Part shown: piece after piece, positions 5,070-43,292 of the stretch
How the letters are laid out: each line of letters starts with the position of its first letter
Position numbering within the stretch: the stretch's first letter is position 1
DNA from: Spirochaetia bacterium
Lineage (GTDB): Bacteria > Spirochaetota > Spirochaetia > SZUA-6 > Bin103
NCBI GenBank assembly: GCA_965203905.1
Contig: CBDBDQ010000005.1
Span: 544,001 to 608,000, forward strand
DNA: 64,000 bases
Reading direction: 5' to 3'
Position numbers and translations under genes: made by a program
Notes under the pieces: model-generated
What the model was told of the DNA's origin: nothing
Databases searched by the model: none
Seen by the model: only the letters and a program-made list of their open reading frames with translations

Positions 5070-6056
5070 TCAGACCGCCTCGCGGATGCGCGGATCCAGC
5101 CACGCCAGCAGGATGTCGGAGATCAACGTTCCCACGACGGTCAGTACGCTCAAGACGAAAATGATGCTTCCGGCCATGAACATGTCCTGACTGAGGAGGG
5201 CAGTTAGCAAGACGGGAGCGATCGTCGGCAGACCCAGGACGATCGAGGTCAGCAGGGCACCGTTCACCATCTCTGGGAGGGTGTACCCGATGGTGCTCAC
5301 CACCGGGTTCGCAGCGGCCCGAAACGGGTACTTGTAGAGGAGCCGCCTCTCGGCCAGGCCTTTGGCGCGAGCCACCATCACGTAGGGTTTTTGCAGCTCG
5401 TCGAGCATGTTGGCGCGCATGATGCGAATGAGGCTGGCGGTGCCGGCAGTGCCGACGATGAGCGCAGGGATCCACAGGTGAGACAGCAAGTCCAAGACCT
5501 TCCCTACGCTCCACGGCGCCGTGAGGTAATCTCTGGAGAACAGGCCTACCGCCGCATTGCCCGTCCACAGAAAGAACAGCCACAGGAAGACGAGGGCGAA
5601 CAGGAAGTTCGGCACCGCCAGCCCGATGAAGCCGATCGTCGTGAACACGTAGTCGCGCGCCGAATATTGATTGATGGCAGAGGTCGTGCCGATGGGAATG
5701 GCGAGGATATACACGACCAGCAGTGAGCTGAAGGCGATCAGGATCGTCCAGGGCAACCGCTCGAGCAACAGGGTCTTCACCGGTTGGTTCCAGGCGAACG
5801 ACCGTCCCAGGTCGCCGCGGAGGAGGTGCGAGGCCCACTTCATGTACTGGATGTGGACCGGCTGATTCAATCCGTAACGATCACGCAAGGCATCGATCTG
5901 GCCTTGTTCCACGATCCGCCCGAGCTGCCTGAGGCCCGCGACGTAGGTATCCACGTAGTCCCCAGCCGGCGCCTGGATGATCAGGAACGACAGCATGGAG
6001 ACGGCGATCAGCGTGGGAACCATGAGCAGCACGCGACGGACGATGTACTTGATCAT
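5070..6056 (-). CDS. ABC transporter permease (OppB-like)
   Basis: N-terminal YIVRRVLLMVPTL, GDLGRS, ARAKGL, C-terminal LDPRIR. Confidence 0.93.
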   Translation of the reverse strand: MIKYIVRRVLLMVPTLIAVSMLSFLIIQAPAGDYVDTYVAGLRQLGRIVEQGQIDALRDRYGLNQPVHIQYMKWASHLLRGDLGRSFAWNQPVKTLLLERLPWTILIAFSSLLVVYILAIPIGTTSAINQYSARDYVFTTIGFIGLAVPNFLFALVFLWLFFLWTGNAAVGLFSRDYLTAPWSVGKVLDLLSHLWIPALIVGTAGTASLIRIMRANMLDELQKPYVMVARAKGLAERRLLYKYPFRAAANPVVSTIGYTLPEMVNGALLTSIVLGLPTIAPVLLTALLSQDMFMAGSIIFVLSVLTVVGTLISDILLAWLDPRIREAV

Positions 6057-6128
6057 GTGGCGTTAGCTCTTGTACCATCCACGCCTCATTCCTTCAAGCG
6101 AAGTCACCTTTGCTCACCCTACCTCGCC

Positions 6129-6221
6129 TCCACCGTGGCCACCTTTCTGAAGGCAGCCTCGAGGTCGCGGCCACTGACGATCGTGCTCGATGATCTGCAC
6201 TGGACGGACAAGCCGACGCTA
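6129..6221 (+). pseudogene. Fragment of an AAA/STAND-type ATPase (Walker B region)
   Basis: Translates STVATFLKAASRSRPLTIVLDDLHWTDKPTL, matching the hhhDDLHWAD motif of LuxR/adenylate-cyclase-associated ATPases. No start codon or rest of gene. Confidence 0.6.
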
Positions 6222-6278
6222 CACTGCGATCAGGGTCGGGATCATGAGCAGAACGCGACGGACGACGAGCTTCGTCAT
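6219..6278 (-). pseudogene. Truncated second copy of the OppB-like permease 5' end
   Basis: Translates MTKLVVRRVLLMIPTLIAV* versus MIKYIVRRVLLMVPTLIAV in the intact gene. Upstream TTCCTTCAAGCGA is also repeated (6089-6101 and 6316-6328). Confidence 0.8.
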
Positions 6279-6402
6279 CCAGCGTGAGCTGTCGTGTCAA
6301 ACAACGATGCCTTTTTTCCTTCAAGCGAGGGCGTGCCCGAGCCCCTGGAAGCAGTGCGCCATGCGTGGCCAGCCCATGCGCTCGTCGATCTTGCACATAC
6401 GC

Positions 6403-6460: not shown

Positions 6461-7660
6461 ATGGCGGTAGAGAAGTTCACGATCTCACGGGACGATAGCG
6501 TATATGAGGCCTTCCCCGACTTGTGCCTCACCGATAGTGGCCGCGTGCTGCTGGTATATCGCGAGAGCAACGGACACGTCGCCAGCGAATTCTGCCGCCT
6601 CGTCGTCCGCTCCAGCGACGACGCGGGACGCACCTGGTCCGAGCGTCGAGTGGTCCGTGAAGAGGACCGGTCATCTGGCGTGCTTACAGCGTGGAACTGT
6701 CCGAAGATCCAACAGCTTCAGGATGGTCGCGTGGTGCTGACGTGCGACAAGGTCGACTTTCCACCCGGAGAGTGGGGCCATGGCATGGGCAGTCCACACA
6801 ACGCGCTCTGGTTCAGTGAGGATGAAGGCCGCACTTGGTCGGAGCCGGTGCACACGCCGGTGGGGGGAATCACCCCCGATAAGATCACCGAGCTGCCCGA
6901 CGGCCGCTGGCTGCTGCCAACGAGCGTGCGCCACGAGGAAACGGGACAGGTGTTGCAGCAGATAACCAGCAGCCCGGACGGTGGGCAATCGTGGGGTGCC
7001 CCGGTGGTCATCTGCGAAGACCGGCGCTACGAGATGTGCGAAGCCAGTGTCGTGACATGTCCGGGTGGAGAGTTGGTGGTCTACCTGCGCGAGAACAGCG
7101 GCCAGCGCAGGCCCTTGCAAAAGATGATCTCCACAGACGGCGGAGCAACTTGGGAGGGACCCTATGCCACGCTCAATCCGGCCGCCCAGGGCATGCCGGT
7201 GGCTGGGCTGACGCGGGACGATCTGGTGCTCGTTACGGGCCGCTTCACGCTCGACTGCGACTGGCGCGTCGACGACAGCGAGGAGACGATGCAGCGGCGG
7301 CTCGCCAGGCGGTCCGTTGTCATTCCTCAGGTGCCCGCCAACGAGGACTTTGTGGCGGGGCTCAAAGAGGACGCGGGGGTGGTAAAGACAGGCACCGAAG
7401 TGATCAGCGCGATGGGCCGCACCTCCATCCATACCTTCGCCTTCATCGAGCCCCTGGCAAGCGCGCTCGAGCCCGACGTCGACTCCCAGAAAGGTTTGCT
7501 GCTGCCGCTGGACCTGGACAACAACAACCTCGGGGCGGACAGCGGCTACACGGGATGGGTTGAGTACGAGCCGGGCCGTTTTCTGGTCGCGGCGTACATC
7601 AATGCCGATGCGCCATTGGCGCAGATTCGCGGGTACCACTTCGGTCTGGAAGATTTCTGA
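6461..7660 (+). CDS. BNR/Asp-box beta-propeller protein (sialidase-family fold)
   Basis: Asp-boxes SDDAGRTW, SEDEGRTW, SPDGGQSW, STDGGATW; C-terminal DSGYT; YEAFP where sialidases have FRIP. Confidence 0.8.
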   Translation: MAVEKFTISRDDSVYEAFPDLCLTDSGRVLLVYRESNGHVASEFCRLVVRSSDDAGRTWSERRVVREEDRSSGVLTAWNCPKIQQLQDGRVVLTCDKVDFPPGEWGHGMGSPHNALWFSEDEGRTWSEPVHTPVGGITPDKITELPDGRWLLPTSVRHEETGQVLQQITSSPDGGQSWGAPVVICEDRRYEMCEASVVTCPGGELVVYLRENSGQRRPLQKMISTDGGATWEGPYATLNPAAQGMPVAGLTRDDLVLVTGRFTLDCDWRVDDSEETMQRRLARRSVVIPQVPANEDFVAGLKEDAGVVKTGTEVISAMGRTSIHTFAFIEPLASALEPDVDSQKGLLLPLDLDNNNLGADSGYTGWVEYEPGRFLVAAYINADAPLAQIRGYHFGLEDF

Positions 7661-7711
7661 GTACGGACTTTCGGGTGGTTCATGCCGGTGAACTAGTGCA
7701 GGGGGCATGTC

Positions 7712-9598
7712 TTGAGCGATATGAGGAAAACTACGTGTCCGGGACGGCTTTACGAAGCAACGGTGCCCGATACCCTCGAGCTGGTAGATCGAGCAGAGAT
7801 TGGCCTAAACGGTATAGGTGGAACGATAGACCCAGATTTGCACCACGAGCTCTTTTTCCACGTGTACTATGCATGGAAAAAGCCTTTCATGCGACACTAC
7901 GCCATGTGGGGCACGGATGATGCCAAAAGCGCAGAATCCTTTCCTTTAATGCGGGTGATGTGCGGGAGTGATCGCTATGCTGATGTCGAAGCAACACAAA
8001 ATGCCACGCTGATCTCGCGCATCCAAGACGGCCTCTACTGGGACCTCTACGATCCGCAGCAACCCTGGCAGTTTCGCTATAATCTCAACTCGGAATTCGA
8101 TGGCGCCATCCGCAACGAGGACGTATCCCAGCCGCACGGTAACGCGCGGATGCTCAGAACCATGCTCACGTGGCGTGAGTTCGACAATGATACGCAGTGG
8201 GATAGGTACATCGGGGACCTCGTACGAGGCATGAGAAGAATAGCAATCGATCATGAAGACTACTGTTACTACCCTGACGGCGGTTTCGGCCAGGCTTTCA
8301 ACTACCCTCGCTCCGGATGGCTTAGAACCGACGAACCAGAAACTGAAACCGAAGGCGGAGAGGGAACAGTCGTTGGCTTTCATGGAGCAGCAATAGAGGG
8401 GCTTTCTCGCTGGTATTCGGTAAGCGGCGACCTCCGAGCCCGGGACCTTGCAGGGCGCTTGGCCCGGTTCTGTATGTTGCCCAAGTTTTGGGGAGGGATT
8501 CCCGATCCAAACCGGCTCATCGCCGGCCAGAAGCACGTGCCAGAGAGGCTTCCCGATCCTGTCGGTATAGCCGGACATGAGCTGGGCCACTGGTATTCGT
8601 TCTTTCACAGCCGTGCTATCGCGCTACGGGGACTGCTTGCCTATGCCAGCGTTGCCGGTGATGAGCGTGCGCTCGAGTTTGTCCGGAGGGCGTATGAATA
8701 CACCTGGAGCTTCTCTATCGCCCGCATCGGTTGGATCAACAACTTTCCTGGTGCATGGAATCTCTGCGAGGGATGTTCCCTGGGCGATATCGTCGCCCTG
8801 GGAATACGGCTGACTGATTCAGGCGCAGGGGACTACTGGGACGACGTGGATGCAGTTGTTCGCAATCATTTGACTGAACAACAGATTATCAGTGCTGATC
8901 TGCTGGAAACAGTTTCGAGTGCATCCAGTGTGCGCCCTCCTGAAGACTACAGCCCCTACCCGAAACAGGAATGCGAAGAACACGTCATCGAGCGGAGTCT
9001 CGGTTGCTACGGATGCCATTCGACCCCCGTGAGCATCCCGAAACCGTGGGTATCCCAATGTTGTACGGCAAACGGTACGCAAGGTCTCTACTATTGCTGG
9101 GAAGGTGCGGTTCGGGAGGAAAATGGCACGGCGACGGTAAATTTGTTGTTGAACCGCACAGCGAAATACCTGGATGTCGATAGCTATCTTCCGTACCAGG
9201 GAAAGGTCACGATTCACAACAAGAGTGCCGCTAGAGCTTACGTGCGGATCCCTGCGTGGGTGATGCGCAGGAATATTCTGTGCGACGTCTCAGGAAGGCG
9301 CCGAGGTCCCACCTGGATGACAAACTACCTTCGATTCGATGATCTCAAGCCGGGTGACGAGATTCATATCGAGTTTCCGATCAAGGAGACCACCGCACGT
9401 TACACTGCTTGCTCGGGGACCAACACGGAAGAGGCCTACACCTGCACATTCCGCGGCAGTACGCTGGTAGACATTTCTCCACGCGACGACTCACCTGTGA
9501 GCTATCCTCTGTACCTTCGGGAGCACATGCGCAAGGATACCACCCCGATGAGGAAAAGGATGAGGTTCCTACCGGAAAAGACCATTGTCACATGGTAA
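7712..9598 (+). CDS. GH127/GH146-like glycoside hydrolase (beta-L-arabinofuranosidase-like)
   Basis: E-x-C (CEGCS) and CC (QCCTANG) motifs; C-terminal domain with SYLPYQGKV and VRIPAW; visibly more AT-rich than the backbone. Confidence 0.65.
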   Translation: MSDMRKTTCPGRLYEATVPDTLELVDRAEIGLNGIGGTIDPDLHHELFFHVYYAWKKPFMRHYAMWGTDDAKSAESFPLMRVMCGSDRYADVEATQNATLISRIQDGLYWDLYDPQQPWQFRYNLNSEFDGAIRNEDVSQPHGNARMLRTMLTWREFDNDTQWDRYIGDLVRGMRRIAIDHEDYCYYPDGGFGQAFNYPRSGWLRTDEPETETEGGEGTVVGFHGAAIEGLSRWYSVSGDLRARDLAGRLARFCMLPKFWGGIPDPNRLIAGQKHVPERLPDPVGIAGHELGHWYSFFHSRAIALRGLLAYASVAGDERALEFVRRAYEYTWSFSIARIGWINNFPGAWNLCEGCSLGDIVALGIRLTDSGAGDYWDDVDAVVRNHLTEQQIISADLLETVSSASSVRPPEDYSPYPKQECEEHVIERSLGCYGCHSTPVSIPKPWVSQCCTANGTQGLYYCWEGAVREENGTATVNLLLNRTAKYLDVDSYLPYQGKVTIHNKSAARAYVRIPAWVMRRNILCDVSGRRRGPTWMTNYLRFDDLKPGDEIHIEFPIKETTARYTACSGTNTEEAYTCTFRGSTLVDISPRDDSPVSYPLYLREHMRKDTTPMRKRMRFLPEKTIVTW

Positions 9599-9612
9599 GC
9601 GCTAAAGGATAA

Positions 9613-11529
9613 GTGGTGGACGACGTGGCAACTGAATGGAAACCTGGCGATCCGATCGACTACATTCAGCCAGAGATCCCCGAGTTCGAGATGCCGCCCT
9701 ACGCAGGCCAGCGCTACCAGACCATGGTGCCGGACACGCTCGATCTGGCCGAGCGGGCGCGCCTGGCTATCCACGCCATGACCGAAAACCCCAACCCACA
9801 GGCTGACTATGAGTCCTACTGGGCCATCAAATGGACGCCTGTTCCCACGATGACATCGGATTTTCATAGCTCTACAATGACTCCCAAGTTTCAAGAGTCC
9901 GTGGTGTTGGATCGGATCATGAGCGGCAGCGAGCAGAATCTCCACGTGGACCGGCGCTGGATGGAGATCACCCTCCACATGCAAGGCCCGGATGGTCTCA
10001 TATACACCCCGACCGGGGGGCGGCCCTGGGCCTTCCGACTCGATCCGGCGCACTTGGCCGGCACGCCAAACGCCGGCGCCGGTCAGACCGTGGTTCCCTT
10101 TATCAACGGCCAGTTCCTGCGCACGATGTCGCTGTACGCCGCACGAGACGGAAGCTCGTTTTGGAACGACCCGCTCCGCCGGGCCGTAGATGGGCTGGTG
10201 GCATTAGCCATCGATGCGGGGGATTACGCCTACTACTGGCCGGGCCCCTTGTATGCCGAAAAGGCGCCGCCGCCCGATGTGAAGCCCCAGTATCAGTTCC
10301 ACATGACTGAGATAAGTCTGGTATTCTGGGGTCTGTTGTCCGCGTACCGGCAGATCAGCTATGAGCCGGCCCTGTCTTTGGCGCGCAAGCTCATTGCGTT
10401 TCACCGACCCACCTTCTTCACGCCGGAGGGCGCTTATCTGACCACCCAGAAGGGCGCATGGAAATCCCACGTCCACGGCCATGCCCGGGCTGTGCAGGCG
10501 ATGGCGGAGTACGCTCTGCTGACGGATGACCAGGAGCTGCTCGCGTTCGTTGTGAAAAGCTATGAATGGGCCAGATCCCGGTCAGAGGCGTTGACCGGCT
10601 ACATCCCCAACCTCATACCCAGCCCCGAATGGCAGCAGCCCGTGATCGAGGGTGACCTGGACGAAGGCACGGATGCGTCGTTCGTGGAGGATTCCTACAA
10701 CGGCTGTGAGATCATGGGGTTAGTCGACCTGATCGCCATCGCCTTGCAGTTGAGCGAAGCCGGTGTTGCGGACTATTGGGATGACGTCGACCGCTGGACG
10801 CGCAATATGTTGGCAGAATCTCAGCTGCTCCAGACTGACTGGGTCTACCACCTGCCAGGTTCGGCACGTGTGTCCCTGCAACTCGAACCGGGGCAGACGA
10901 CGGAGCGGGTGGCCGAACGTAATCTCGGCGCATGGGCGACGAATGCGACGCCGAATGATTGGTACGAGGGCCTTATCGGTTCGAGCGAGCATCTGCATGG
11001 TGACGGGTTCGTGCATGGCGACACGGCGGCCGGCGGGCGCGGCCTCTACTGGATCTGGCAGCGCATCCTCACCTACAACCAAGGCAAACTGAACGTGAAC
11101 CTGCTCTTCAACCGGGCTTCACCATGGGCGGATGTGGACAGCTATATCCCCTATCAGGGGCGTGTGGACGTCAAAGTGAAGCAGCCAGCGGACCTGGCGG
11201 TGCGCATTCCGGAGTGGGTAGCGCCACGAGAGGCTCGAGTGCAGGTGAACGGCAGCGAGCGCAGCCTGGGCTGGGCTGGCCGATATGCCCAGGTGGGCGG
11301 GGTGCAGCCCGAAGACAGGGTTACGCTCACCTTCCCGATTGCCGAGCGGACTGACGAGGTGTTCATACAGAAAAGAAAGTACACTCTGGTGCGCCGGGGT
11401 AACGACGTCGTTGCAATCTATCCACGCGGAAGATATTACCCGTTTTACCAACGTGACCATTATCGCAGTGGAGACCCCCGCTGGCGCAAGGTGATGCGTT
11501 TCTTGGCGGACCGACCGATCGATTGGTGA
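9613..11529 (+). CDS. GH127-like paralog lacking the catalytic cysteines
   Basis: Colinear with the upstream gene (VPDTLDLAERA, DYWDDVD, SYIPYQGRV, VRIPEW), but has CEIMG and HGDT at the E-x-C and CC positions. Confidence 0.6.
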   Translation: MVDDVATEWKPGDPIDYIQPEIPEFEMPPYAGQRYQTMVPDTLDLAERARLAIHAMTENPNPQADYESYWAIKWTPVPTMTSDFHSSTMTPKFQESVVLDRIMSGSEQNLHVDRRWMEITLHMQGPDGLIYTPTGGRPWAFRLDPAHLAGTPNAGAGQTVVPFINGQFLRTMSLYAARDGSSFWNDPLRRAVDGLVALAIDAGDYAYYWPGPLYAEKAPPPDVKPQYQFHMTEISLVFWGLLSAYRQISYEPALSLARKLIAFHRPTFFTPEGAYLTTQKGAWKSHVHGHARAVQAMAEYALLTDDQELLAFVVKSYEWARSRSEALTGYIPNLIPSPEWQQPVIEGDLDEGTDASFVEDSYNGCEIMGLVDLIAIALQLSEAGVADYWDDVDRWTRNMLAESQLLQTDWVYHLPGSARVSLQLEPGQTTERVAERNLGAWATNATPNDWYEGLIGSSEHLHGDGFVHGDTAAGGRGLYWIWQRILTYNQGKLNVNLLFNRASPWADVDSYIPYQGRVDVKVKQPADLAVRIPEWVAPREARVQVNGSERSLGWAGRYAQVGGVQPEDRVTLTFPIAERTDEVFIQKRKYTLVRRGNDVVAIYPRGRYYPFYQRDHYRSGDPRWRKVMRFLADRPIDW

Positions 11530-32200: not shown

Positions 32201-32333
32201 TCGAGCACTGCATCATCTCGGAGCCCTGGGCGGGATGATGTCCTTGGCACACTTCGCTCTTGGCGCATCAGCGACTTGAAACACAGGCTCGGATCAGGCA
32301 ACTTGAACTGATCAACCAGCTTGGATGGTTCAA

Positions 32334-32770
32334 TGAGCACTGTTCTTGACGACGTTACGAATGAGAGAATCGACGCACAGCATATCCGGCGACGCGTCGA
32401 GGACTGGGACAAGCGCTTGCACGCGCTCTATGGCATGATCGGCGGCTGGCTGCCCGCGGGGTGGACCGCCCGTGCGGGTGCGCCGGTGCGCATGCACGAA
32501 GAAATGATGCGTGAATTCGGTATCGCCCCGAAGGAGGTTCCGACCCTCGAACTCGTCCACCAGACCGGCGATGCTGCCAGGTTGGAGCCACGTGCGCTCT
32601 GGGTCATTGGTTGTAACGGCCGTGTCGACCTGAAACGCGACAGTCATCATTATCTGATTGTCGATCGCGCCGAGAATTTTGAAAGGGCGGACTGGCAGGC
32701 AGCTAATGCCCACCGGCGAGGTGAGCGCGAACCCGTCACCCGTGACTGGCTGCTCAGCGTCCTTCAGTGA
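32334..32770 (+). CDS. Hypothetical protein, partner of the HEPN protein
   Basis: ~145-aa ORF from MSTVLDD containing PRALWVIGCNGRVDL; GTGA overlap with the next gene. Confidence 0.75.
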
Positions 32771-33234
32771 GTGATTTGCAAGCAATCGCGGATCTATATG
32801 CCGAAGTCGACGACAGCCTGGAAGTATTGCGCGACAGGGCCAGTGCCGCAGCCGCAGCCACCGAGCGAACTCGGATCGAACACAAACAGAGAATAAACGA
32901 CCAAGCCTACTTTGTGCTCGCATGGGGTCAATTGGAGGCCGACATAGTGGATGCGTGTCGCAGCACGATTCGGCACGCTCAAACGCATGGCAACTGGCGC
33001 GAACGTCGTGCCTGGACTCTGTACAACCCGGATGATCGGAGATTGTCAGGCCTGAACTTCGAGAACCGGTTGACACTCGTCCTCGAGAAGGGCTCCGACA
33101 ACTGGAAGAAGGTGTTGCAGCACTACCGCGTCCGCAATCAGATCGCGCACGGCAGACTCCGCTCCCAGCGCATCGACGTCTCCAGCGTAATCGAGGAGTT
33201 CTATCTCATCCAGGCATCGCTGGCGCGCAACTGA
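32767..33234 (+). CDS. Putative HEPN-domain RNase
   Basis: Helical 155-aa protein with C-terminal RNQIAH (R-x4-H) and an upstream WGQLE. Confidence 0.65.
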   Translation: MSDLQAIADLYAEVDDSLEVLRDRASAAAAATERTRIEHKQRINDQAYFVLAWGQLEADIVDACRSTIRHAQTHGNWRERRAWTLYNPDDRRLSGLNFENRLTLVLEKGSDNWKKVLQHYRVRNQIAHGRLRSQRIDVSSVIEEFYLIQASLARN

Positions 33235-33249
33235 ATCCCTCCGCGATCA

Positions 33250-33485
33250 TGCTGCCCTACTACGACCGCTGGCGCGCCCGGCAGGCGCTTGAAGTTGGTC
33301 CGAAATCACGTCCAGCAGACGAACCAGGTGCAGCGGTTTCATGGCCTCCGGCGCCACGGAGTTGCCTTGCGTACTACCCTGACGCGGCGCCGTCCACGAT
33401 GCGGCCCAGTGCCTCCGGCAGCGCGGTCGGCCTGCCGTGGATGGCGTCCAGCGCCACGTGGCGGGTCGCGGCTCGCGCCACCTCC
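33250..33485. repeat. Right copy of the diverged direct repeat (relic of phyH 3' end, spacer, thioesterase 3' end)
   Basis: Aligns with 31989-32200; re-encodes LPYYDRWRARQA, the PhyH C-terminus. Confidence 0.92.
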
Positions 33486-37594: not shown

Positions 37595-37718
37595 GCCTCG
37601 ACTCCGCACCGGAACTCGCCGCGGGGCCGGCCCCCGGACCGTGGTCCGCTGCTCGCTGTGAACGCGTTGACCGTGATTGATCCGCGTACCAAGGTCCGGG
37701 GCCAAGTCCGCACGCTTA

Positions 37719-38789
37719 TCACCCTAAATACTCCCTCAGATGGCACGCGGGACCCAGCAATTCGACCTGCCATTGCGTGTGCAGAGCGATCTGACGACGT
37801 AGTCGAACGACACCCGGCGCTGGCGTTCGTTGTAGTCTGATCCCGGATTCGCCAATCGTACGCTCGACAGCACGGCCCCTGCGAGTTGGACGAACCACGC
37901 CGGTCTTCGCCGTAGCGTATGCGTGTGAGGATCTGCCCAGGATTCGCCGCACGTCACGGTTGGTCGGCAGAGCACGGTTACCTCGTCGCCACGGCGTCAG
38001 AATGGCGATTGGATCAACCTCCAGCATTTCTTCCCACACAGCGGATTCGTCGGCGCTCTCAGAGCCATGGTGGGAGACCTTGAACGCAGATGCCGTTCCT
38101 GATGGCCGAGCTTCATCCTCCAGTATTTTCGACCAGCCACGCTGCTCAAGATCCGCTCCGAGCAGCACAGCAATGTCGCCGACCTCAATCCGCAGGGCAA
38201 CCGCGATTTCGTTTGGTGAGCGGCTAGGGACTCTGGTTTCGGCCTGGCCCGCCCTCGGCAGCAAAGGGGACATCGCTCGCATGAAATCCACGAACGCGTC
38301 GTCGGAGGGCGAGAGTGCCCAGATGCGGCACAATCCATGCACGAAGATGCGGCGATTGGCGACGGCCCATGTCGGCACGCCGCCCACCTCGCGGAGCCTG
38401 GAGAACACGCTATAGATCTCTCGGACGCCTGAACTGGATGCAGCAAAGTGCCGGTTGTCCAAGGCATGGACCACGCCGAGAAACTCGTCGGCGCAGAGGA
38501 CGTTGGAGCAGCAGAACTTTGCCTTCCTACATACTGCTGCCATTTGCGCGATGCCACGTATGTGGTCGTCATGCCAATGCGAAGCCACGATGAGCTTCAC
38601 AGCTTCGCCAGGATCGACGCCAAGAATCTCCAGGTACTCCAAGGCGGTTGGGGCGTCCGTACGGCCGCATGAGTCGACCAGCACCCAGGCGCCATCGCCA
38701 ACGTGCATGACGATGCTTTCACCGTACCCGGGTCCAAGAAGCGTCAGTTCAAACTCATCGTTCCTTGGGGGATTGCCCCCGTCCGTCAC
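37719..38789 (-). CDS. ComEC/Rec2-like MBL-fold metallo-hydrolase (putative nuclease)
   Basis: GYGESI, LVDSC, SHWHDDH, LGADLE, KVSHHGS; no TM region; GTG 38789 overlaps the upstream stop. Confidence 0.8.
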   Translation of the reverse strand: MTDGGNPPRNDEFELTLLGPGYGESIVMHVGDGAWVLVDSCGRTDAPTALEYLEILGVDPGEAVKLIVASHWHDDHIRGIAQMAAVCRKAKFCCSNVLCADEFLGVVHALDNRHFAASSSGVREIYSVFSRLREVGGVPTWAVANRRIFVHGLCRIWALSPSDDAFVDFMRAMSPLLPRAGQAETRVPSRSPNEIAVALRIEVGDIAVLLGADLEQRGWSKILEDEARPSGTASAFKVSHHGSESADESAVWEEMLEVDPIAILTPWRRGNRALPTNRDVRRILGRSSHAYATAKTGVVRPTRRGRAVERTIGESGIRLQRTPAPGVVRLRRQIALHTQWQVELLGPACHLREYLG

Positions 38790-39397
38790 AGCTCGAATGC
38801 CCGCCTTGTCTCTCGTGCCCACTCCTTGCCTTGCTGCAGGTCGCGATCGGTAATCCGGGGAAGATCGCGGAATACGATCTGGGAGACACGTTTCTTAGTG
38901 CCTGAAGGAGAGCGCTCGTAGCCAATTACCCAGCGAAAGATAGCCCCTACCCGCAATGTGGCCGCGTCGCCATCCGAGATCTCGGTCAAAGGGATGATCG
39001 CTTCTTCCTCTTCGTGCGACGAGCCCACCGTCAGGTCGGTCAACGCCGCCACAAACTCGTCGCCGCCAATCTCAAGCACGTGCCCTTCCCACTCCTGCAG
39101 AGCGTGAAACGTGGCGGCTGCGGTGGCGTGCGATAGTTTCGGCGGTGCATTCACAACCGAGACAGCACCTGTCCCAGACTGCACTTCATGAAGCGAAACC
39201 GAGAAACTCCCCCTTCCCACACCAACCGGACCACGGCTTTCGCCGGAGTTGCTCGCCGGATCTAGGATCAACGCCATCCGCACCGCCTCGTCCACCCTCA
39301 TGAGTGGTGTGTCAAGGGCCTCTGCACCAGAGCCTTCGTCACTTGAGACATTATGGAGCCCGTACGGCCCGGCAGGTTGGATAGTCTCTCCTGTCAA
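38786..39397 (-). CDS. Hypothetical protein with a beta-rich C-terminal domain
   Basis: Low-complexity N-half, then LQEWEGHVLEI..FVAAL...GAIFRWVIGY..RVSQIVFR; 4-nt overlaps with both neighbours. Confidence 0.7.
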   Translation of the reverse strand: MTGETIQPAGPYGLHNVSSDEGSGAEALDTPLMRVDEAVRMALILDPASNSGESRGPVGVGRGSFSVSLHEVQSGTGAVSVVNAPPKLSHATAAATFHALQEWEGHVLEIGGDEFVAALTDLTVGSSHEEEEAIIPLTEISDGDAATLRVGAIFRWVIGYERSPSGTKKRVSQIVFRDLPRITDRDLQQGKEWARETRRAFEL

Positions 39398-40095
39398 AGT
39401 AAACTCTCTTTCGCTAAAGACAATATGTGATCGACTATACCTTGGCTTCGCCGGAGGGAAACCTCAAATTCATCCCCGAGGAATCGCATGAGTCTCGTTC
39501 CGTCCGCGCTTTCGGCATCTTCGACTGCATACTGATCATTCACTTGGACGTAGACCCCCAACCTCCCACCGCTAATCCGGTGGGACGGCCCTACAGTTAC
39601 ATTGATCTCACTGCCCGGCGGCCGGCCCTTCGGCCGGAGCTGCGACATCTTGAGCGTCGTCATTCCACCAGACTCAGCGTTCAATTCAAGTTCCTCAACG
39701 TAACACCCCCACGGTTCCACCGGTGCCAGGGCTCTGCCGATGCGGTCCAGTTCAGCCAAGTTGGCTACAGGGACATGAACGTTGCGATTGATACCTATCA
39801 GCCGGAGGGGCGTATGGTGGAGGTACTCCTTGAACACGCGCAAGACAAGGTCCCGCACTCGGATGTGAGGCGCTTGGGCGGTCTCCGCTACGAACGTATC
39901 GGTCGTCACCTGCAGCGAGAGCCAGTCGAAAGAAAACTGGGTCACCTGCGCATGGGCGACCTGCAACGTTGCCGTGTCGGCAGCGGTGTTCGGGAGCAGT
40001 TCGTGCAAAACGAACCAGGCCGGAGTGAAAATCGCCGGATTGAAGTTCCCGCGGAGCACGACTGCCACACCGTCGATCTCCGGGTGAGTCCTCAC
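39394..40095 (-). CDS. Hypothetical protein, possibly TIGR04255-like
   Basis: N-terminal VVLRGNFNPAIFTPAWF and central TPLRLIGIN; family assignment is from memory only. Confidence 0.6.
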   Translation of the reverse strand: MRTHPEIDGVAVVLRGNFNPAIFTPAWFVLHELLPNTAADTATLQVAHAQVTQFSFDWLSLQVTTDTFVAETAQAPHIRVRDLVLRVFKEYLHHTPLRLIGINRNVHVPVANLAELDRIGRALAPVEPWGCYVEELELNAESGGMTTLKMSQLRPKGRPPGSEINVTVGPSHRISGGRLGVYVQVNDQYAVEDAESADGTRLMRFLGDEFEVSLRRSQGIVDHILSLAKESLL

Positions 40096-40244
40096 GCTAT
40101 GCGCCTTTGGTGCGCTCGGGCGAGCTAGCCGCGCGGGACCGCGGCCGGTATGACGCTCTATGGCCCGCGCCGTCGGTCAGCAGAATAAGCAGCGCCATCA
40201 GCATGCGACGCGAATGCCGGCGGTGCATCGCCATTCCTGCCCAG

Positions 40245-40355
40245 CTACGGCACGGATGTCGGTTTCTCATCGGCGCAAGGATCGGCGTCCGCGACGCTTC
40301 CGGCGAGGATTTCAGCCCGTGGGCGGCAGGTGTCGAATATCGTCAGGGTCGTCAT
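40245..40355 (-). pseudogene. 5' relic of a DUF499-family ATPase gene
   Basis: MTTLTIFDTCRPRAEILAGSVADAD resembles the DUF499 N-terminus (PRxDVLxG...DFAADL); the frame stops after 36 codons. Confidence 0.55.
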
Positions 40356-40582: not shown

Positions 40583-41608
40583 TCAGTCCGCGGTTGGCTC
40601 TCTCACCCAACGGGCCGACCGGCCGAGCAGGCGCAGGAGACCGATTACGCCGCCGATGATGCCGGCCAGGGCGAACACGGCGGCGTAGTCGATCAGGGGA
40701 ATGCGCAGCACCTCGCTCAACCGGCCCCAGCCAAGCGGCACGTATACCGCCAGCACGCCGGCGACGTAGGCCGCCAGGACCAGGCCGCGTACCGGGCGCG
40801 ACCAGCTCAGGCCGTGCATCTGCGTAATCACGAAGATTCCGCCGAACCCGAACGCGAACATCGGCCACATGCCCTCGCCCTGCATGATCGCCACCAGCGT
40901 GCCGTGGGCCAGCACCGCCACCTCCAACGCCAGCGTCCACCAGCGGTTCACGTGCGCGCGGGTCAGGAACAGGCTGCCCTGCAGCAACAGGAGGAACAGG
41001 TACAGGAACCCGATCAGGTGCCCGCTGGTGGCCTCCATCGGGTGGTACCAGAACGTGTACACGATCGCCCAGGCGAAGTAATAGCCGTGGTAGCGCCGCG
41101 CCACCTCCGTGAGCCGGCGCGGGAACCCGATCCTGGCGCCAAAGAACAGCCCCCGGCGCGGGTTCTCCATCAGCAGCACCCACACCAGCATCACCACCAC
41201 CGACCCCAGCGAGCTCCAGATCGAGACGTCCTGCGCCAAACCGTCGTACCAGAGATGGGTCTGCACCAGGTGCAACGCGACGAAGAAGCCGTTGACCCCC
41301 AGGGCCAGGTAGTTTGCGGAGCGCAGCGAGGCGCTGTAACGGGGCCGGACGCGCCCGGCGGTGCGCTGTGCGTAGGCGATCAGCGCCCAGAACGAGACCT
41401 GGTGCAGCAGGTAGAAGCCCCACGCCGTCAGGCGGCTGGCCGCGGTCGGTTCGATCAGCTTCCAGTAGTACCAGGATGCACCGGCGTCGGGGGCATGGGG
41501 GACGTCGGCCAGCCGCTCTCCCAGCAGCCAGATGAGCAGCGTGAACGCGAGGCTGACGGCGGCGCCGATCGCCAGGACCCGATACGCCGATCCCGGTGCC
41601 CGCTTCAT
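40583..41608 (-). CDS. Polytopic membrane protein of unknown function
   Basis: About 10 hydrophobic segments rich in W, H and Y; start MKRAPG. Confidence 0.8.
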   Translation of the reverse strand: MKRAPGSAYRVLAIGAAVSLAFTLLIWLLGERLADVPHAPDAGASWYYWKLIEPTAASRLTAWGFYLLHQVSFWALIAYAQRTAGRVRPRYSASLRSANYLALGVNGFFVALHLVQTHLWYDGLAQDVSIWSSLGSVVVMLVWVLLMENPRRGLFFGARIGFPRRLTEVARRYHGYYFAWAIVYTFWYHPMEATSGHLIGFLYLFLLLLQGSLFLTRAHVNRWWTLALEVAVLAHGTLVAIMQGEGMWPMFAFGFGGIFVITQMHGLSWSRPVRGLVLAAYVAGVLAVYVPLGWGRLSEVLRIPLIDYAAVFALAGIIGGVIGLLRLLGRSARWVREPTAD

Positions 41609-41746
41609 GCTTACGCGTTGGCCTGCGCCCGCTCCCATGTAATAACAATGTCGAAGCCGCACCGAGTACAGGTCAACATTCGCCCATGTCACTGCACTTG
41701 GCGTCGTTACGGACCGTGCGCAGCCTTTGTGATCGCGCCTGAGTGG

Positions 41747-42145
41747 CTACACGGGCGATGCTTCGACTCGCCCCACCAGGGACTGGAAGAAGGCGTTGTC
41801 CCACAACTGCAACACGGCCGCGTCGCGGATGAACGGACGCACGTCGCGTTTCGCCTGGTCGAAGTCGAACGCCGCCAGCTCCTTGCGAACCGCTTCGAGG
41901 TAGGGCGCGAGATCGAACTCGCGGTCCGGCTGCAGCAAAGAGAAGTCGATGTCCTCGGAGAAGCGCGGCAGACGATGGAAGATGCGCAACGCGGTTGCTG
42001 CATAAAACGCCGCGTGCTCGAAGAACCTGGCACGCCACAGTCCCAACAGGGCCAACTCCTGAACGACTTCCTTCAAGGCGTTCTCGTGATCGGCCAGGGT
42101 CTGCGGCTGGTAGCGGTCGAGCATCCCCTGCAGCGCGACGTTCAT
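41747..42145 (-). pseudogene. AbiEii-family nucleotidyltransferase toxin, internally deleted
   Basis: AFYAATALRIFHRLPRFSEDIDF (canonical GGT changed to AAT) joined directly to the C-terminal DFDQAKRDVRPF; only 132 aa. Confidence 0.75.
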
Positions 42146-42774
42146 CGGGTCGCCTCCGCGTGGCGCTCCAGCCAGCGCAGGAAGGCGTTCACACTCTGCC
42201 GGCGATAGCGCTTCGCCACTTCCCGCACCACGGCCACCCGCATGCGCACGACCGCGTCGAGGTCGACGCGGAGGTCATCCTCCAGCAATCCTGGAATGTC
42301 CCGCTGCGCGCGCACCTGGGTAACGCAGGCGATGCGGCCGCACAGCGCCTTCTCCGGTTCTGCCAGAAAGAACGACCCGCCAGCACCGGATTGCAGACCG
42401 ACACCAAAGCCGTATGCGACTTCGTTGAGCGGACGATAGGTGAACCGGCCCATTGGCGTCTGAAACACTCTCGCTCGCTTGCAGGTGATGCTGGTGATCT
42501 CGTCGACCCGTTCGGGAATCAGCCCGTGCCAGGCCAGCGCGGTCTCCAGGGAGACATAGGACGGCCCATAGACGAGGGGCGCCAGTACCAGGGGATCCAC
42601 TGACGGCGGTCGCCCTGGGAACGTCGGAGCCACGTACAGCCCCTTCCTGACCCGCACCACGTCGCCGCCCAGGCAGAGACTACGCAGCTTGTTCCGGGGC
42701 GCGCGGAAGCCCGCCAACCGGTCCATGGCGAGTTGGTAGTCGAACGGATGATCGATGGGCAGCTCGACCCGCAT
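42142..42774 (-). CDS. AbiEi-family antitoxin (type IV TA)
   Basis: RVRKGLY, PSYVSLETALAWHGLIPE, AEPEKAL; 4-nt overlap with the toxin. Confidence 0.85.
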   Translation of the reverse strand: MRVELPIDHPFDYQLAMDRLAGFRAPRNKLRSLCLGGDVVRVRKGLYVAPTFPGRPPSVDPLVLAPLVYGPSYVSLETALAWHGLIPERVDEITSITCKRARVFQTPMGRFTYRPLNEVAYGFGVGLQSGAGGSFFLAEPEKALCGRIACVTQVRAQRDIPGLLEDDLRVDLDAVVRMRVAVVREVAKRYRRQSVNAFLRWLERHAEATR

Positions 42775-42796
42775 CCCACGCATACCCTGAGAAGTT

Positions 42797-42831
42797 GACC
42801 GCCATGTTGACGTGACGTCAACATAGCGGTC
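42797..42831. promoter_or_regulatory. Inverted repeat, probable AbiEi autoregulatory operator
   Basis: GACCGCCATGTTGACGT-G-ACGTCAACATAGCGGTC: 17-bp arms with one mismatch, directly upstream of abiEi. Confidence 0.7.
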
Positions 42832-42860
42832 TATTCTTACTACCGAGACGTTCTCCAGCG

Positions 42861-43292
42861 TCAGCGTAGGCGCTGCATGAACCACCAGTGGTGGCCCTCG
42901 AGGTCGCGTGCCTCGTAGCTGCGGTCCGCCCAGTAGCCCGCGCCGTAGTCCTGCGTCGCCGGCTCCGTGGTGATGACGGCGCCGGCCGCCCGCGCCCGTT
43001 CGCAGTGGGCGTCGGCGTCGTCGACGTACACGGCCAGCGATTGCGTGTTGGCGCCACCGACCGCCAGCGGCGACCGTGGCCAGGTCCGGTCCGGGTGCAG
43101 GCCCACCTGCCCCACCATGACCAAGCCGCCGTTCAGGACGAGCTGTGAGTGGACGATCCGGCCCTGGTCATCGGCGATCCTCTCGCGCACCGCGAAGCCG
43201 AAGGCGCGGCTCAACCAGTCGATCGCGGCCGCCGCGTCGTCGTAGAACACCGCGGGGGAGATTCTCGGCCAGCCGTCAGGCGGATTATTCAT
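42861..43292 (-). CDS. VOC/glyoxalase family protein
   Basis: AAIDWLSRAFGF, VDDADAH, DLEGHHW. Confidence 0.88.
   Translation of the reverse strand: MNNPPDGWPRISPAVFYDDAAAAIDWLSRAFGFAVRERIADDQGRIVHSQLVLNGGLVMVGQVGLHPDRTWPRSPLAVGGANTQSLAVYVDDADAHCERARAAGAVITTEPATQDYGAGYWADRSYEARDLEGHHWWFMQRLR

Follow-up and report, generated by a model that had tools for sequence, protein, structure and literature searches.

ComEC-like metallo-beta-lactamase (MBL) nucleases have only recently been shown to act as defence effectors, in systems where they are switched on by partner proteases. In the available part of PMC12799240, the ComEC-like MBL proteins of Hachiman and AVAST are described as gated pro-DNases, and the MBL pro-nucleases of Hachiman, AVAST, Lamassu, DRT, and canu as kept latent by insertions of their own until a partner protease activates them. 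A second group of systems is centred on Hma, called a "type-1 DUF499-centred BREX-related" system in the available sections of PMC12839542, with MANTIS as a related type according to the accessible part of a preprint (10.64898/2026.09.23.753747). Excerpts of PMC11232893 report that inserted genes such as those of Septu, PARIS, and Ppl are present in 66.5% of hma systems and call the region a defence hotspot, and the sections of PMC12839542 at hand describe auxiliary nucleases in BREX-related loci as back-up effectors. Here we examine a cassette of three genes, termed A, B, and C, in a stretch of 64,000 nucleotides (the window) of a Spirochaetia bacterium (assembly GCA_965203905.1, contig CBDBDQ010000005.1, positions 544,001 to 608,000 of the forward strand), in which C encodes a soluble ComEC-like MBL protein and relics of an Hma operon lie directly upstream of A. 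On balance, we favour the view that A-B-C encodes a nuclease module of three proteins that is self-contained and moves horizontally; most likely it serves in defence against phages or plasmids, and it commonly resides in the internal hotspot of Hma operons.

The cassette in the window and in other genomes

Genes A (39394..40095; 233 amino acids, GTG start), B (38786..39397; 203 amino acids, TTG start), and C (37719..38789; 356 amino acids from a GTG at 38789, or 367 from the longest start at 38822) follow each other on the minus strand. The start of B lies over the stop of A (TTGA at 39397-39394) and the start of C over the stop of B (GTGA at 38789-38786), and both the list of open reading frames (ORFs) and the sequence thus agree with the three overlapping ORFs that a sequence-only reading of the window had proposed. 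That reading had also called the cassette more AT-rich than the backbone, which is borne out by a GC content of 0.57-0.61 over 37750-39999 versus 0.66-0.75 in both flanks.

A scan of genomes with B returned 178 relatives, the best 80 of which were kept as loci (L001-L080); all of these are from metagenome-assembled genomes, and they span many phyla. The conservation across genomes that had been suggested as a check is evident, as A, B, and C are present in identical order and strand in 69 of the 80 loci (tblastn), with B and C only in two and B only in nine. Homologues of the triad are distributed patchily across many phyla at 46-80% identity, and this spread, together with the low GC content, fits horizontal transfer. 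A cultured example is found on a plasmid of Adhaeribacter swui (Bacteroidota), where genes for hypothetical proteins of 222 and 197 amino acids are followed by one for an "MBL fold metallo-hydrolase"; identities to the window proteins are 26% for A (6e-32), 37% over the oligonucleotide/oligosaccharide-binding (OB) domain for B, and 30% for C (5e-51), and the A homologue of this plasmid matches no PADLOC or NCBIfam family. Among 72,556 plasmids, A was found in one record and B in two, and neither had a match in 50,697 phage records.

The genes also remain closely linked to each other in these loci. The 4-nucleotide overlap of B and C is kept in 50 of the 64 cassettes that have both ORFs, and that of A and B in only 10 of 66, the remainder having mostly gaps of 2-23 nucleotides. 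Five natural A-B fusion proteins (425-438 amino acids) were identified, which are just 40-57% identical to one another and therefore do not stem from one sequencing error, and a single 314-amino-acid fragment joins B to the beginning of C. In a set of 49 cassettes, including that of the window, in which all three ORFs are near full length by strict length filters, the matrices of pairwise identity for the three proteins are correlated (Mantel rho 0.51-0.71, p=0.001). The correlation shows shared inheritance of the three genes and nothing beyond it; they form a conserved unit that is inherited together.

The three proteins and their modelled complex

Protein C belongs to the MBL superfamily, matching Pfam Lactamase_B (PF00753) at 1e-7 and 32.6 bits, above the cut-off of 22.7. 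The motif HWHDDH (71-76), the aspartate of LLG.D, and HHGS show a conservation of at least 95% across 64 homologues, and H71, H73, D75, H76, D213, H240, and H241 are invariant in 36 sequences. The best solved relatives of a profile of these 36 homologues are the ComEC MBL domains 9ic4 (3e-9) and 30bt (1.4e-7). Matches of C to the NCBIfam ComEC models (8.8e-6 and 0.01) align only the C-terminal MBL part and fall far below the cut-offs for ComEC/Rec2 (TIGR00361, NF008580; 24.3 bits versus 969 and 14 versus 190), such that C is not a member of these families. Neither a membrane segment (maximum 19-residue hydropathy 1.52) nor a Competence or DUF4131 domain (Pfam) is found in C. As the family profile of C scores best on ComEC MBL domains and the protein lacks a hydrophobic segment, the earlier description of a soluble, ComEC-like MBL hydrolase with intact HWHDDH, D, and HHGS and no membrane domain is correct. 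From the aligned ranges, C exceeds 9ic4 by ~40 residues in the stretch from motif 2 to motif 4, and its C-terminal tail is also longer and is basic (residues 261-356; isoelectric point (pI) 12, charge +14). The best PADLOC matches of C are to RTasMBL (6e-10), LmuA (4.6e-9), and Avs1a (1.8e-3), and for the Adhaeribacter homologue the alignment to RTasMBL covers positions 8-270 of 322.

Protein B has no match in Pfam, NCBIfam 20.0, or PADLOC-DB 2.0.0 at E<=1. A word-indexed search yielded 1237 homologues, in which conservation is limited to approximately residues 95-203, and the N-terminal half is variable. The structure model agrees with the disordered N-terminal half and beta-rich domain that had been claimed for this protein, as residues 1-80 are modelled as disordered (pLDDT <50) and residues 96-200 as a confident beta-barrel with a C-terminal helix. 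A fold search with B retrieves only OB domains, those of LysRS, eIF5A, and exosome S1 (E ~1e-2, prob 0.98), and the B profile retrieves nothing from the sequences of the PDB. The domain is acidic (pI 4.6-4.9, family median 5.2) and has an invariant Glu-rich loop, which speaks against ordinary nucleic-acid binding. Among viral structures, the closest look-alike of the domain is BFVD K4FB73, an uncharacterised 113-amino-acid protein of the Cronobacter jumbo phage GAP32 (E 1.5e-4, TMt 0.56, 20% identity), and the nearest cluster in the ESM Atlas is 58% viral. A B domain at 64% identity is also present in protein P0392 (569 amino acids), which is annotated as FtsZ (PF00091, PF12327) and is probably an artefact of gene calling or assembly.

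Protein A likewise matches no family in Pfam, NCBIfam 20.0, or PADLOC-DB 2.0.0 at E<=1. The word-indexed search yielded 398 homologues and a profile of A reached 2313 clusters at 50% identity (E<=1e-3). The AlphaFold model (pLDDT 84, pTM 0.82) is an alpha/beta structure of two similar sheet-plus-helix halves, consistent with an internal repeat. A search of its fold against the PDB retrieves AdoMetDC, TBP, and RepDE, and the sequence profile retrieves only Moesin from the PDB (E=0.49). The nearest cluster in the ESM Atlas carries the automatic name "TIGR04255 family protein" (score 0.98, 237 of 256 features), and a TIGR04255-like identity had been raised for A by the sequence-only reading. This did not hold up, since the NCBIfam hidden Markov model (HMM) detects no TIGR04255 in A itself (E<=1), in 32 members of its family (E<=10), or in 150 divergent representatives (E<=1), and the automatic cluster name is the sole pointer to it.

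A complex of the three proteins was predicted with chains A, C, and B each given its own alignment and B set as the partner. The model score is 0.83 (0.85, 0.83, and 0.81 in three runs), versus 0.58 for the best control and 0.04 and 0.00 for the others; on a benchmark, 116 of 157 solved complexes attain the mark for this score, as do 2 of 215 mismatched pairs, which serves as a rough guide here, given that custom alignments and three chains were used. Contacts agree in at least 52% and the pLDDT of the partner is at least 58. In the best run, only residues 94-203 of B make contact; on A, they touch residues 4-9, 33, 55-60, 73-90, and 175, and the conserved helix 73-90 of A forms the modelled B-binding face. 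On C, the contacts include residues 22, 42-45, 74, and 78, beside HWHDDH, as well as 96-139, 176-189, 268-271, and 300-322, the latter regions being the C-specific insertion and the basic tail. The prediction of the complex, which had been proposed as a check, thus places B on both the nuclease and A, and suggests a position for B between A and C.

This arrangement suggests how the module may operate. A, B, and C would assemble with B at the centre, and the acidic OB-like domain of B would cover the central insertion and basic tail of C, both absent from the ComEC MBL domain, next to the catalytic motifs, keeping the DNase silent. A would bind B via its most conserved face, with a sensing or regulatory function. 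C would then be freed to degrade DNA either by an infection cue or when B is lost by way of its disordered N-terminal half. The roles of labile antitoxin for B and of sensor or chaperone for A, as envisaged by the sequence-only reading, are hypothetical as well.

A nuclease paired with a tightly coupled, acidic, half-disordered partner, with binding of B to C in the predicted complex, could also be read as a toxin-antitoxin-type addiction module without an antiviral role, composed of the toxin C, its antitoxin B, and a helper A, that stabilises the island carrying it. The persistence of the cassette in the window after loss of the neighbouring system and an AbiEii toxin gene fragment nearby are consistent with such a module. 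We consider this distinctly unlikely, as the module has three genes, with A as strongly conserved as C, and as neither Pfam nor the fold search reveals a DNA-binding antitoxin domain in B. Many truncated copies of C are found beside an intact B, which fits decay of a module of either kind, and addiction and abortive infection are compatible with each other.

The relationship of C to ComEC, whose nuclease domain is its closest solved relative, also raises the alternative that the triad is a housekeeping complex for nucleic-acid processing or related to DNA uptake, without a role in conflict. ComEC also has an OB domain. We regard this explanation as very improbable, given the patchy distribution over many phyla at 46-80% identity, the GC content below that of the host, the embedding of the cassette in defence operons, and the frequent conversion of its copies to pseudogenes. 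The competence membrane domain is also missing from C, and the acidity of the OB-like domain of B sets it apart from OB folds that bind nucleic acids.

Neighbourhoods inside and outside Hma operons

Hma genes or relics are located within 6 kb of the cassette in 29 of the 69 triad loci (tblastn, E<=1e-4). In 21 of these 29, a DUF499 match of at least 400 amino acids and DUF7680 lie directly upstream, usually with DUF1156 directly downstream. DUF499 corresponds to PADLOC HmaC (5.6e-101) and DUF1156 to HmaB (5.2e-74), and both are named "anti-phage-associated" in NCBIfam. In L033, a Snf2/RapA-like ORF follows DUF1156, and in L013 Menshen NsnABC is present in the slot that is taken by the triad elsewhere.

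In the window, tblastn recovers codons 1-29 of a gene for a DUF499 (HmaC-type) ATPase (40269..40355, minus strand) and the C-terminal part of a DUF7680 gene (40097..40279, minus strand; equivalent to ORF 40097..40270). The DUF499 relic is 55-72% identical to the DUF499 proteins of L013, L043, and L076, with the highest identity (72%) to that of L013, so that the relic noticed just upstream of the cassette from sequence alone is genuine. The DUF7680 relic is 41-44% identical to its counterparts in L013 and L043, with an internal gap of 15 residues, and ends in a stop codon one base ahead of the start of A. No DUF1156 methyltransferase or helicase is found downstream of C in the window, which accordingly does not contain an Hma system. 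The earlier view that the cassette is inserted between ordinary genes was incomplete in this respect, as it is the remainder of a decayed Hma locus. Since only the relics of DUF499 and DUF7680 remain and A-B-C is intact, the cassette has outlived its host operon, and its ORFs retain every invariant residue despite the loss of Hma. Relics of DUF499 and DUF7680 are also found upstream of A in L027, L045, L053, L062, and L063. The triad is a concrete addition to the cargo of the Hma/BREX-related hotspot, and the window shows such cargo outliving the host system.

Additional partial copies of the DUF7680 3' end are located just upstream of A in L011 (4994-5155), L052 (4599-4781), and L073 (4868-4996), besides a full DUF7680 elsewhere in each locus; in L011 the triad itself lies between DUF499 and DUF7680. 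These extra tails beside A, like that in the window, suggest recombination at the 3' end of DUF7680 as the route by which the cassette passes from one Hma locus to another. Further conserved cargo is present between DUF7680 and A in L054, L055, and L077 (clusters c165-c168; ~378, 390, 280, and 208 amino acids).

The fixed position between DUF7680 and the DUF1156 methyltransferase in Hma loci, and the relics directly upstream of A in the window and in the five loci named above, would also fit a triad that is not autonomous but serves the Hma/BREX-related system as an auxiliary or back-up nuclease, which the methyltransferase, DUF7680, or the DUF499 ATPase recruits or licenses; on this view, the copy in the window would be a functionless orphan. 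Back-up nucleases in BREX-related loci, as described in the available sections of PMC12839542, are in line with this. We consider such dependence unlikely, since no Hma gene lies within 6 kb of the triad in 40 of the 69 loci. The flanks of the Adhaeribacter plasmid triad contain a recombinase, hypothetical genes, and a DEAD/DEAH helicase on the opposite strand, and no Hma. In six Latescibacterota loci the triad directly follows housekeeping genes, and in four of them (L042, L067, L071, and L075; ~7460-10840) it is followed by an ORF of ~1030 amino acids for an N6_N4 methyltransferase (cluster c38) unrelated to DUF1156; the family N6_N4_Mtase was confirmed by Pfam for L042 and L075, and genes upstream encode an FAD-linked oxidase, an Fe-S protein, and a rhamnose mutarotase. 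The slot within Hma operons is also used by independent systems, namely Menshen here and Septu, PARIS, and Ppl in the accessible part of PMC11232893, and the ORFs of the window keep all invariant residues after the loss of Hma.

The B domain is also encoded separately, as a short ORF of ~116-134 amino acids in the nine B-only loci and on a plasmid of Acetobacter. In four loci of Vicinamibacterales (L006, L026, L032, and L050; ~5100-6400), a B ORF of 123-134 amino acids follows an ORF of 241-282 amino acids, for which Pfam identifies a SprT-like zinc metalloprotease carrying a zinc ribbon in L006 and L026; in L032 and L050 the same is assumed from its position and length. The short B ORF adjoins Septu PtuA/PtuB near a 71-residue DUF499 relic in L080 (3735-6297) and a complete Menshen NsnABC inside an Hma operon in L013 (5959-9595); in L031 its neighbours are a BglII-type endonuclease and PDC-S01, and in L076, one of the two loci with B and C only, a short B precedes a gene for an M78 peptidase. 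In these loci, the B domain may have a link to proteases (SprT-like, M78). On the Acetobacter pasteurianus plasmid (L082, NZ_CP039845; 4230-8900), a 133-amino-acid B gene lies between a gene for a 234-amino-acid protein and those for two unknown proteins (189 and 243 amino acids), which are followed by a TaqI_C/N6_Mtase/Eco57I-type methyltransferase. The 234-amino-acid protein was considered as a homologue of A and rejected (E=1.9), and this set of genes may represent a different set of partners for the B domain. The short B ORFs could be either remnants of replaced cassettes or an independent adaptor gene. Assignment of the B-only and Latescibacterota loci to type I restriction-modification (R-M) operons was also rejected, as Pfam identifies esterase, SprT-like, outer-membrane, and glycolate-oxidase-like genes.

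Other features of the window surround the cassette. An inverted repeat at 37632..37701 (no strand; 23-nucleotide arms, 83% complementary), between the stop of C and a convergent epimerase gene, is a candidate terminator, and scans for repeats, promoters, and terminators around the cassette found nothing above chance. Upstream, an ORF of 369 amino acids (40583-41692, minus strand) without a Pfam match reads as a multi-pass membrane protein, and lies between the relics and an AbiEii fragment. The latter (41747-42885, minus strand) consists of a 132-amino-acid ORF whose match to the AbiEii toxin model (7.9e-10) is confined to positions 1 to ~68, indicating a truncated gene, and that overlaps by 4 nucleotides an upstream ORF of 247 amino acids without a Pfam match, which may be the antitoxin partner; it is another decayed defence or toxin-antitoxin element beside the cassette. 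A second dip in GC content (0.58) at 32250-33250 holds an ORF of 155 amino acids (32767-33234, plus strand) without a Pfam family and may be a foreign insert.

Interpretation and comparison with known systems

Several observations weigh against a self-contained defence module gated by B. The control in which A and B were kept and C was replaced is the one that scores 0.58, so part of the score of the complex comes from the contact of A with B, and the gate role proposed for B rests on one structure model. The OB-like assignment of B is weak at E ~1e-2, and the TM-scores of just ~0.3 for AdoMetDC, TBP, and RepDE are too low to name a fold family for A. The likeness of C to MBL models of defence systems is weak as well (37 and 34 bits) and derives in part from motifs common to all MBLs. 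Truncated or frameshifted copies of C or A are found in L021, L023, L024, L025, L059, L062, and L068, and several decayed copies imply that the cassette is often dispensable. The single promoter-like site, upstream of the DUF499 relic, is at the level expected by chance. Finally, Hma genes are missing within 6 kb in 40 triad loci, whose flanks were not systematically screened for other defence genes.

A more specific form of the favoured reading, which we put forward tentatively as possible rather than probable, is that the triad is a self-sufficient abortive-infection system, in which a ComEC-type DNase is gated in trans by the substrate-mimicking or occluding acidic OB-like domain of B, and the signal of infection is read by A, which represents a new family (>2000 clusters at 50% identity). 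Its home in Hma operons would then reflect a guard role, with the nuclease firing when phage anti-restriction factors disable the Hma complex, and the B domain would be a reusable adaptor. If true, this would constitute a protease-free counterpart of the MBL pro-nuclease modules, and thus a second, independent means of keeping a ComEC-like DNase latent; it would also provide a function for two large unannotated families (the 2313 clusters of A and the 1237 homologues of B).

Among known proteins, the MBL domain of ComEC/Rec2 has HxHxDH, LL..D, and HHGS in common with C, which differs in being a stand-alone protein of 356 amino acids without the competence membrane domain and with a longer, basic C-terminal tail. 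The 6A-MBL anti-phage system (NF058524) scores 14 bits on C against a cut-off of 220 (E=0.019), and NCBIfam Avs1a 17 bits against 420, such that C belongs to neither. In PrrC/EcoprrI, the gene of a latent nuclease is lodged in an R-M operon, where it acts as a guard. The triad resembles this arrangement in placing a latent nuclease gene in an R-M-like operon; this is an analogy only, as the sequences are unrelated and nothing observed indicates that Hma is monitored by the triad.

The search of PADLOC-DB 2.0.0, which had been suggested as a check of novelty, and that of NCBIfam 20.0 leave A and B without a family and give C the weak matches to defence MBL models described above. No description of the triad was found in the literature on DUF7680, 6A-MBL, or TIGR04255, on MBL-fold proteins with OB-fold proteins in anti-phage systems, or on MBL proteins with HmaA. 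The terms "MBL" and "lactamase" have no occurrences in the main texts of PMC11232893 and PMC12839542, and the supplementary effector tables of the latter may list such an MBL protein. Table S7 of PMC11232893 contains 47 neighbours of hmaA in the Lactamase_B family; among 32 of these rows, most are RNase J, RNase Z, or glyoxalase-type proteins, and a few are unnamed MBL proteins.

With the Hma systems with inserted cargo that are described in the accessible parts of PMC11232893 and PMC12839542, the triad shares its location, being placed in or beside a DUF499-DUF1156-Snf2 operon in 29 of 69 loci, as has been described for Septu, PARIS, Ppl, and GmrSD. It differs in that DUF7680 is not named in the available sections of PMC12839542, and in that the window holds just relics of the host system. 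The gated pairs of MBL pro-nuclease and protease (HamM with protease-HamA, Avs1, Lamassu, DRT, and the caspase-nuclease canu; PMC12799240, in the part available) have, like the triad, a soluble ComEC-like MBL protein beside dedicated partner genes, and the best PADLOC matches of C are to the MBL models of such systems. These matches are far weaker than membership would give, however, and no trypsin-like or caspase protease family was detected in A or B (Pfam, NCBIfam, PADLOC; E<=1); the neighbours of the cassette are relics and an epimerase gene. Instead of a protease, the partners in the triad are a two-half alpha/beta protein (A) and an acidic OB-like protein (B), and gating would be in trans by B, whereas that of the described pairs depends on cleavable insertions in cis. 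We treat the triad as working in the manner of the MBL pro-nuclease modules, with gating in trans as the hypothesised difference, and not as a member of them. With an effector of a known kind at its core, the cassette is credible as a defence-type cassette and is apparently undescribed.

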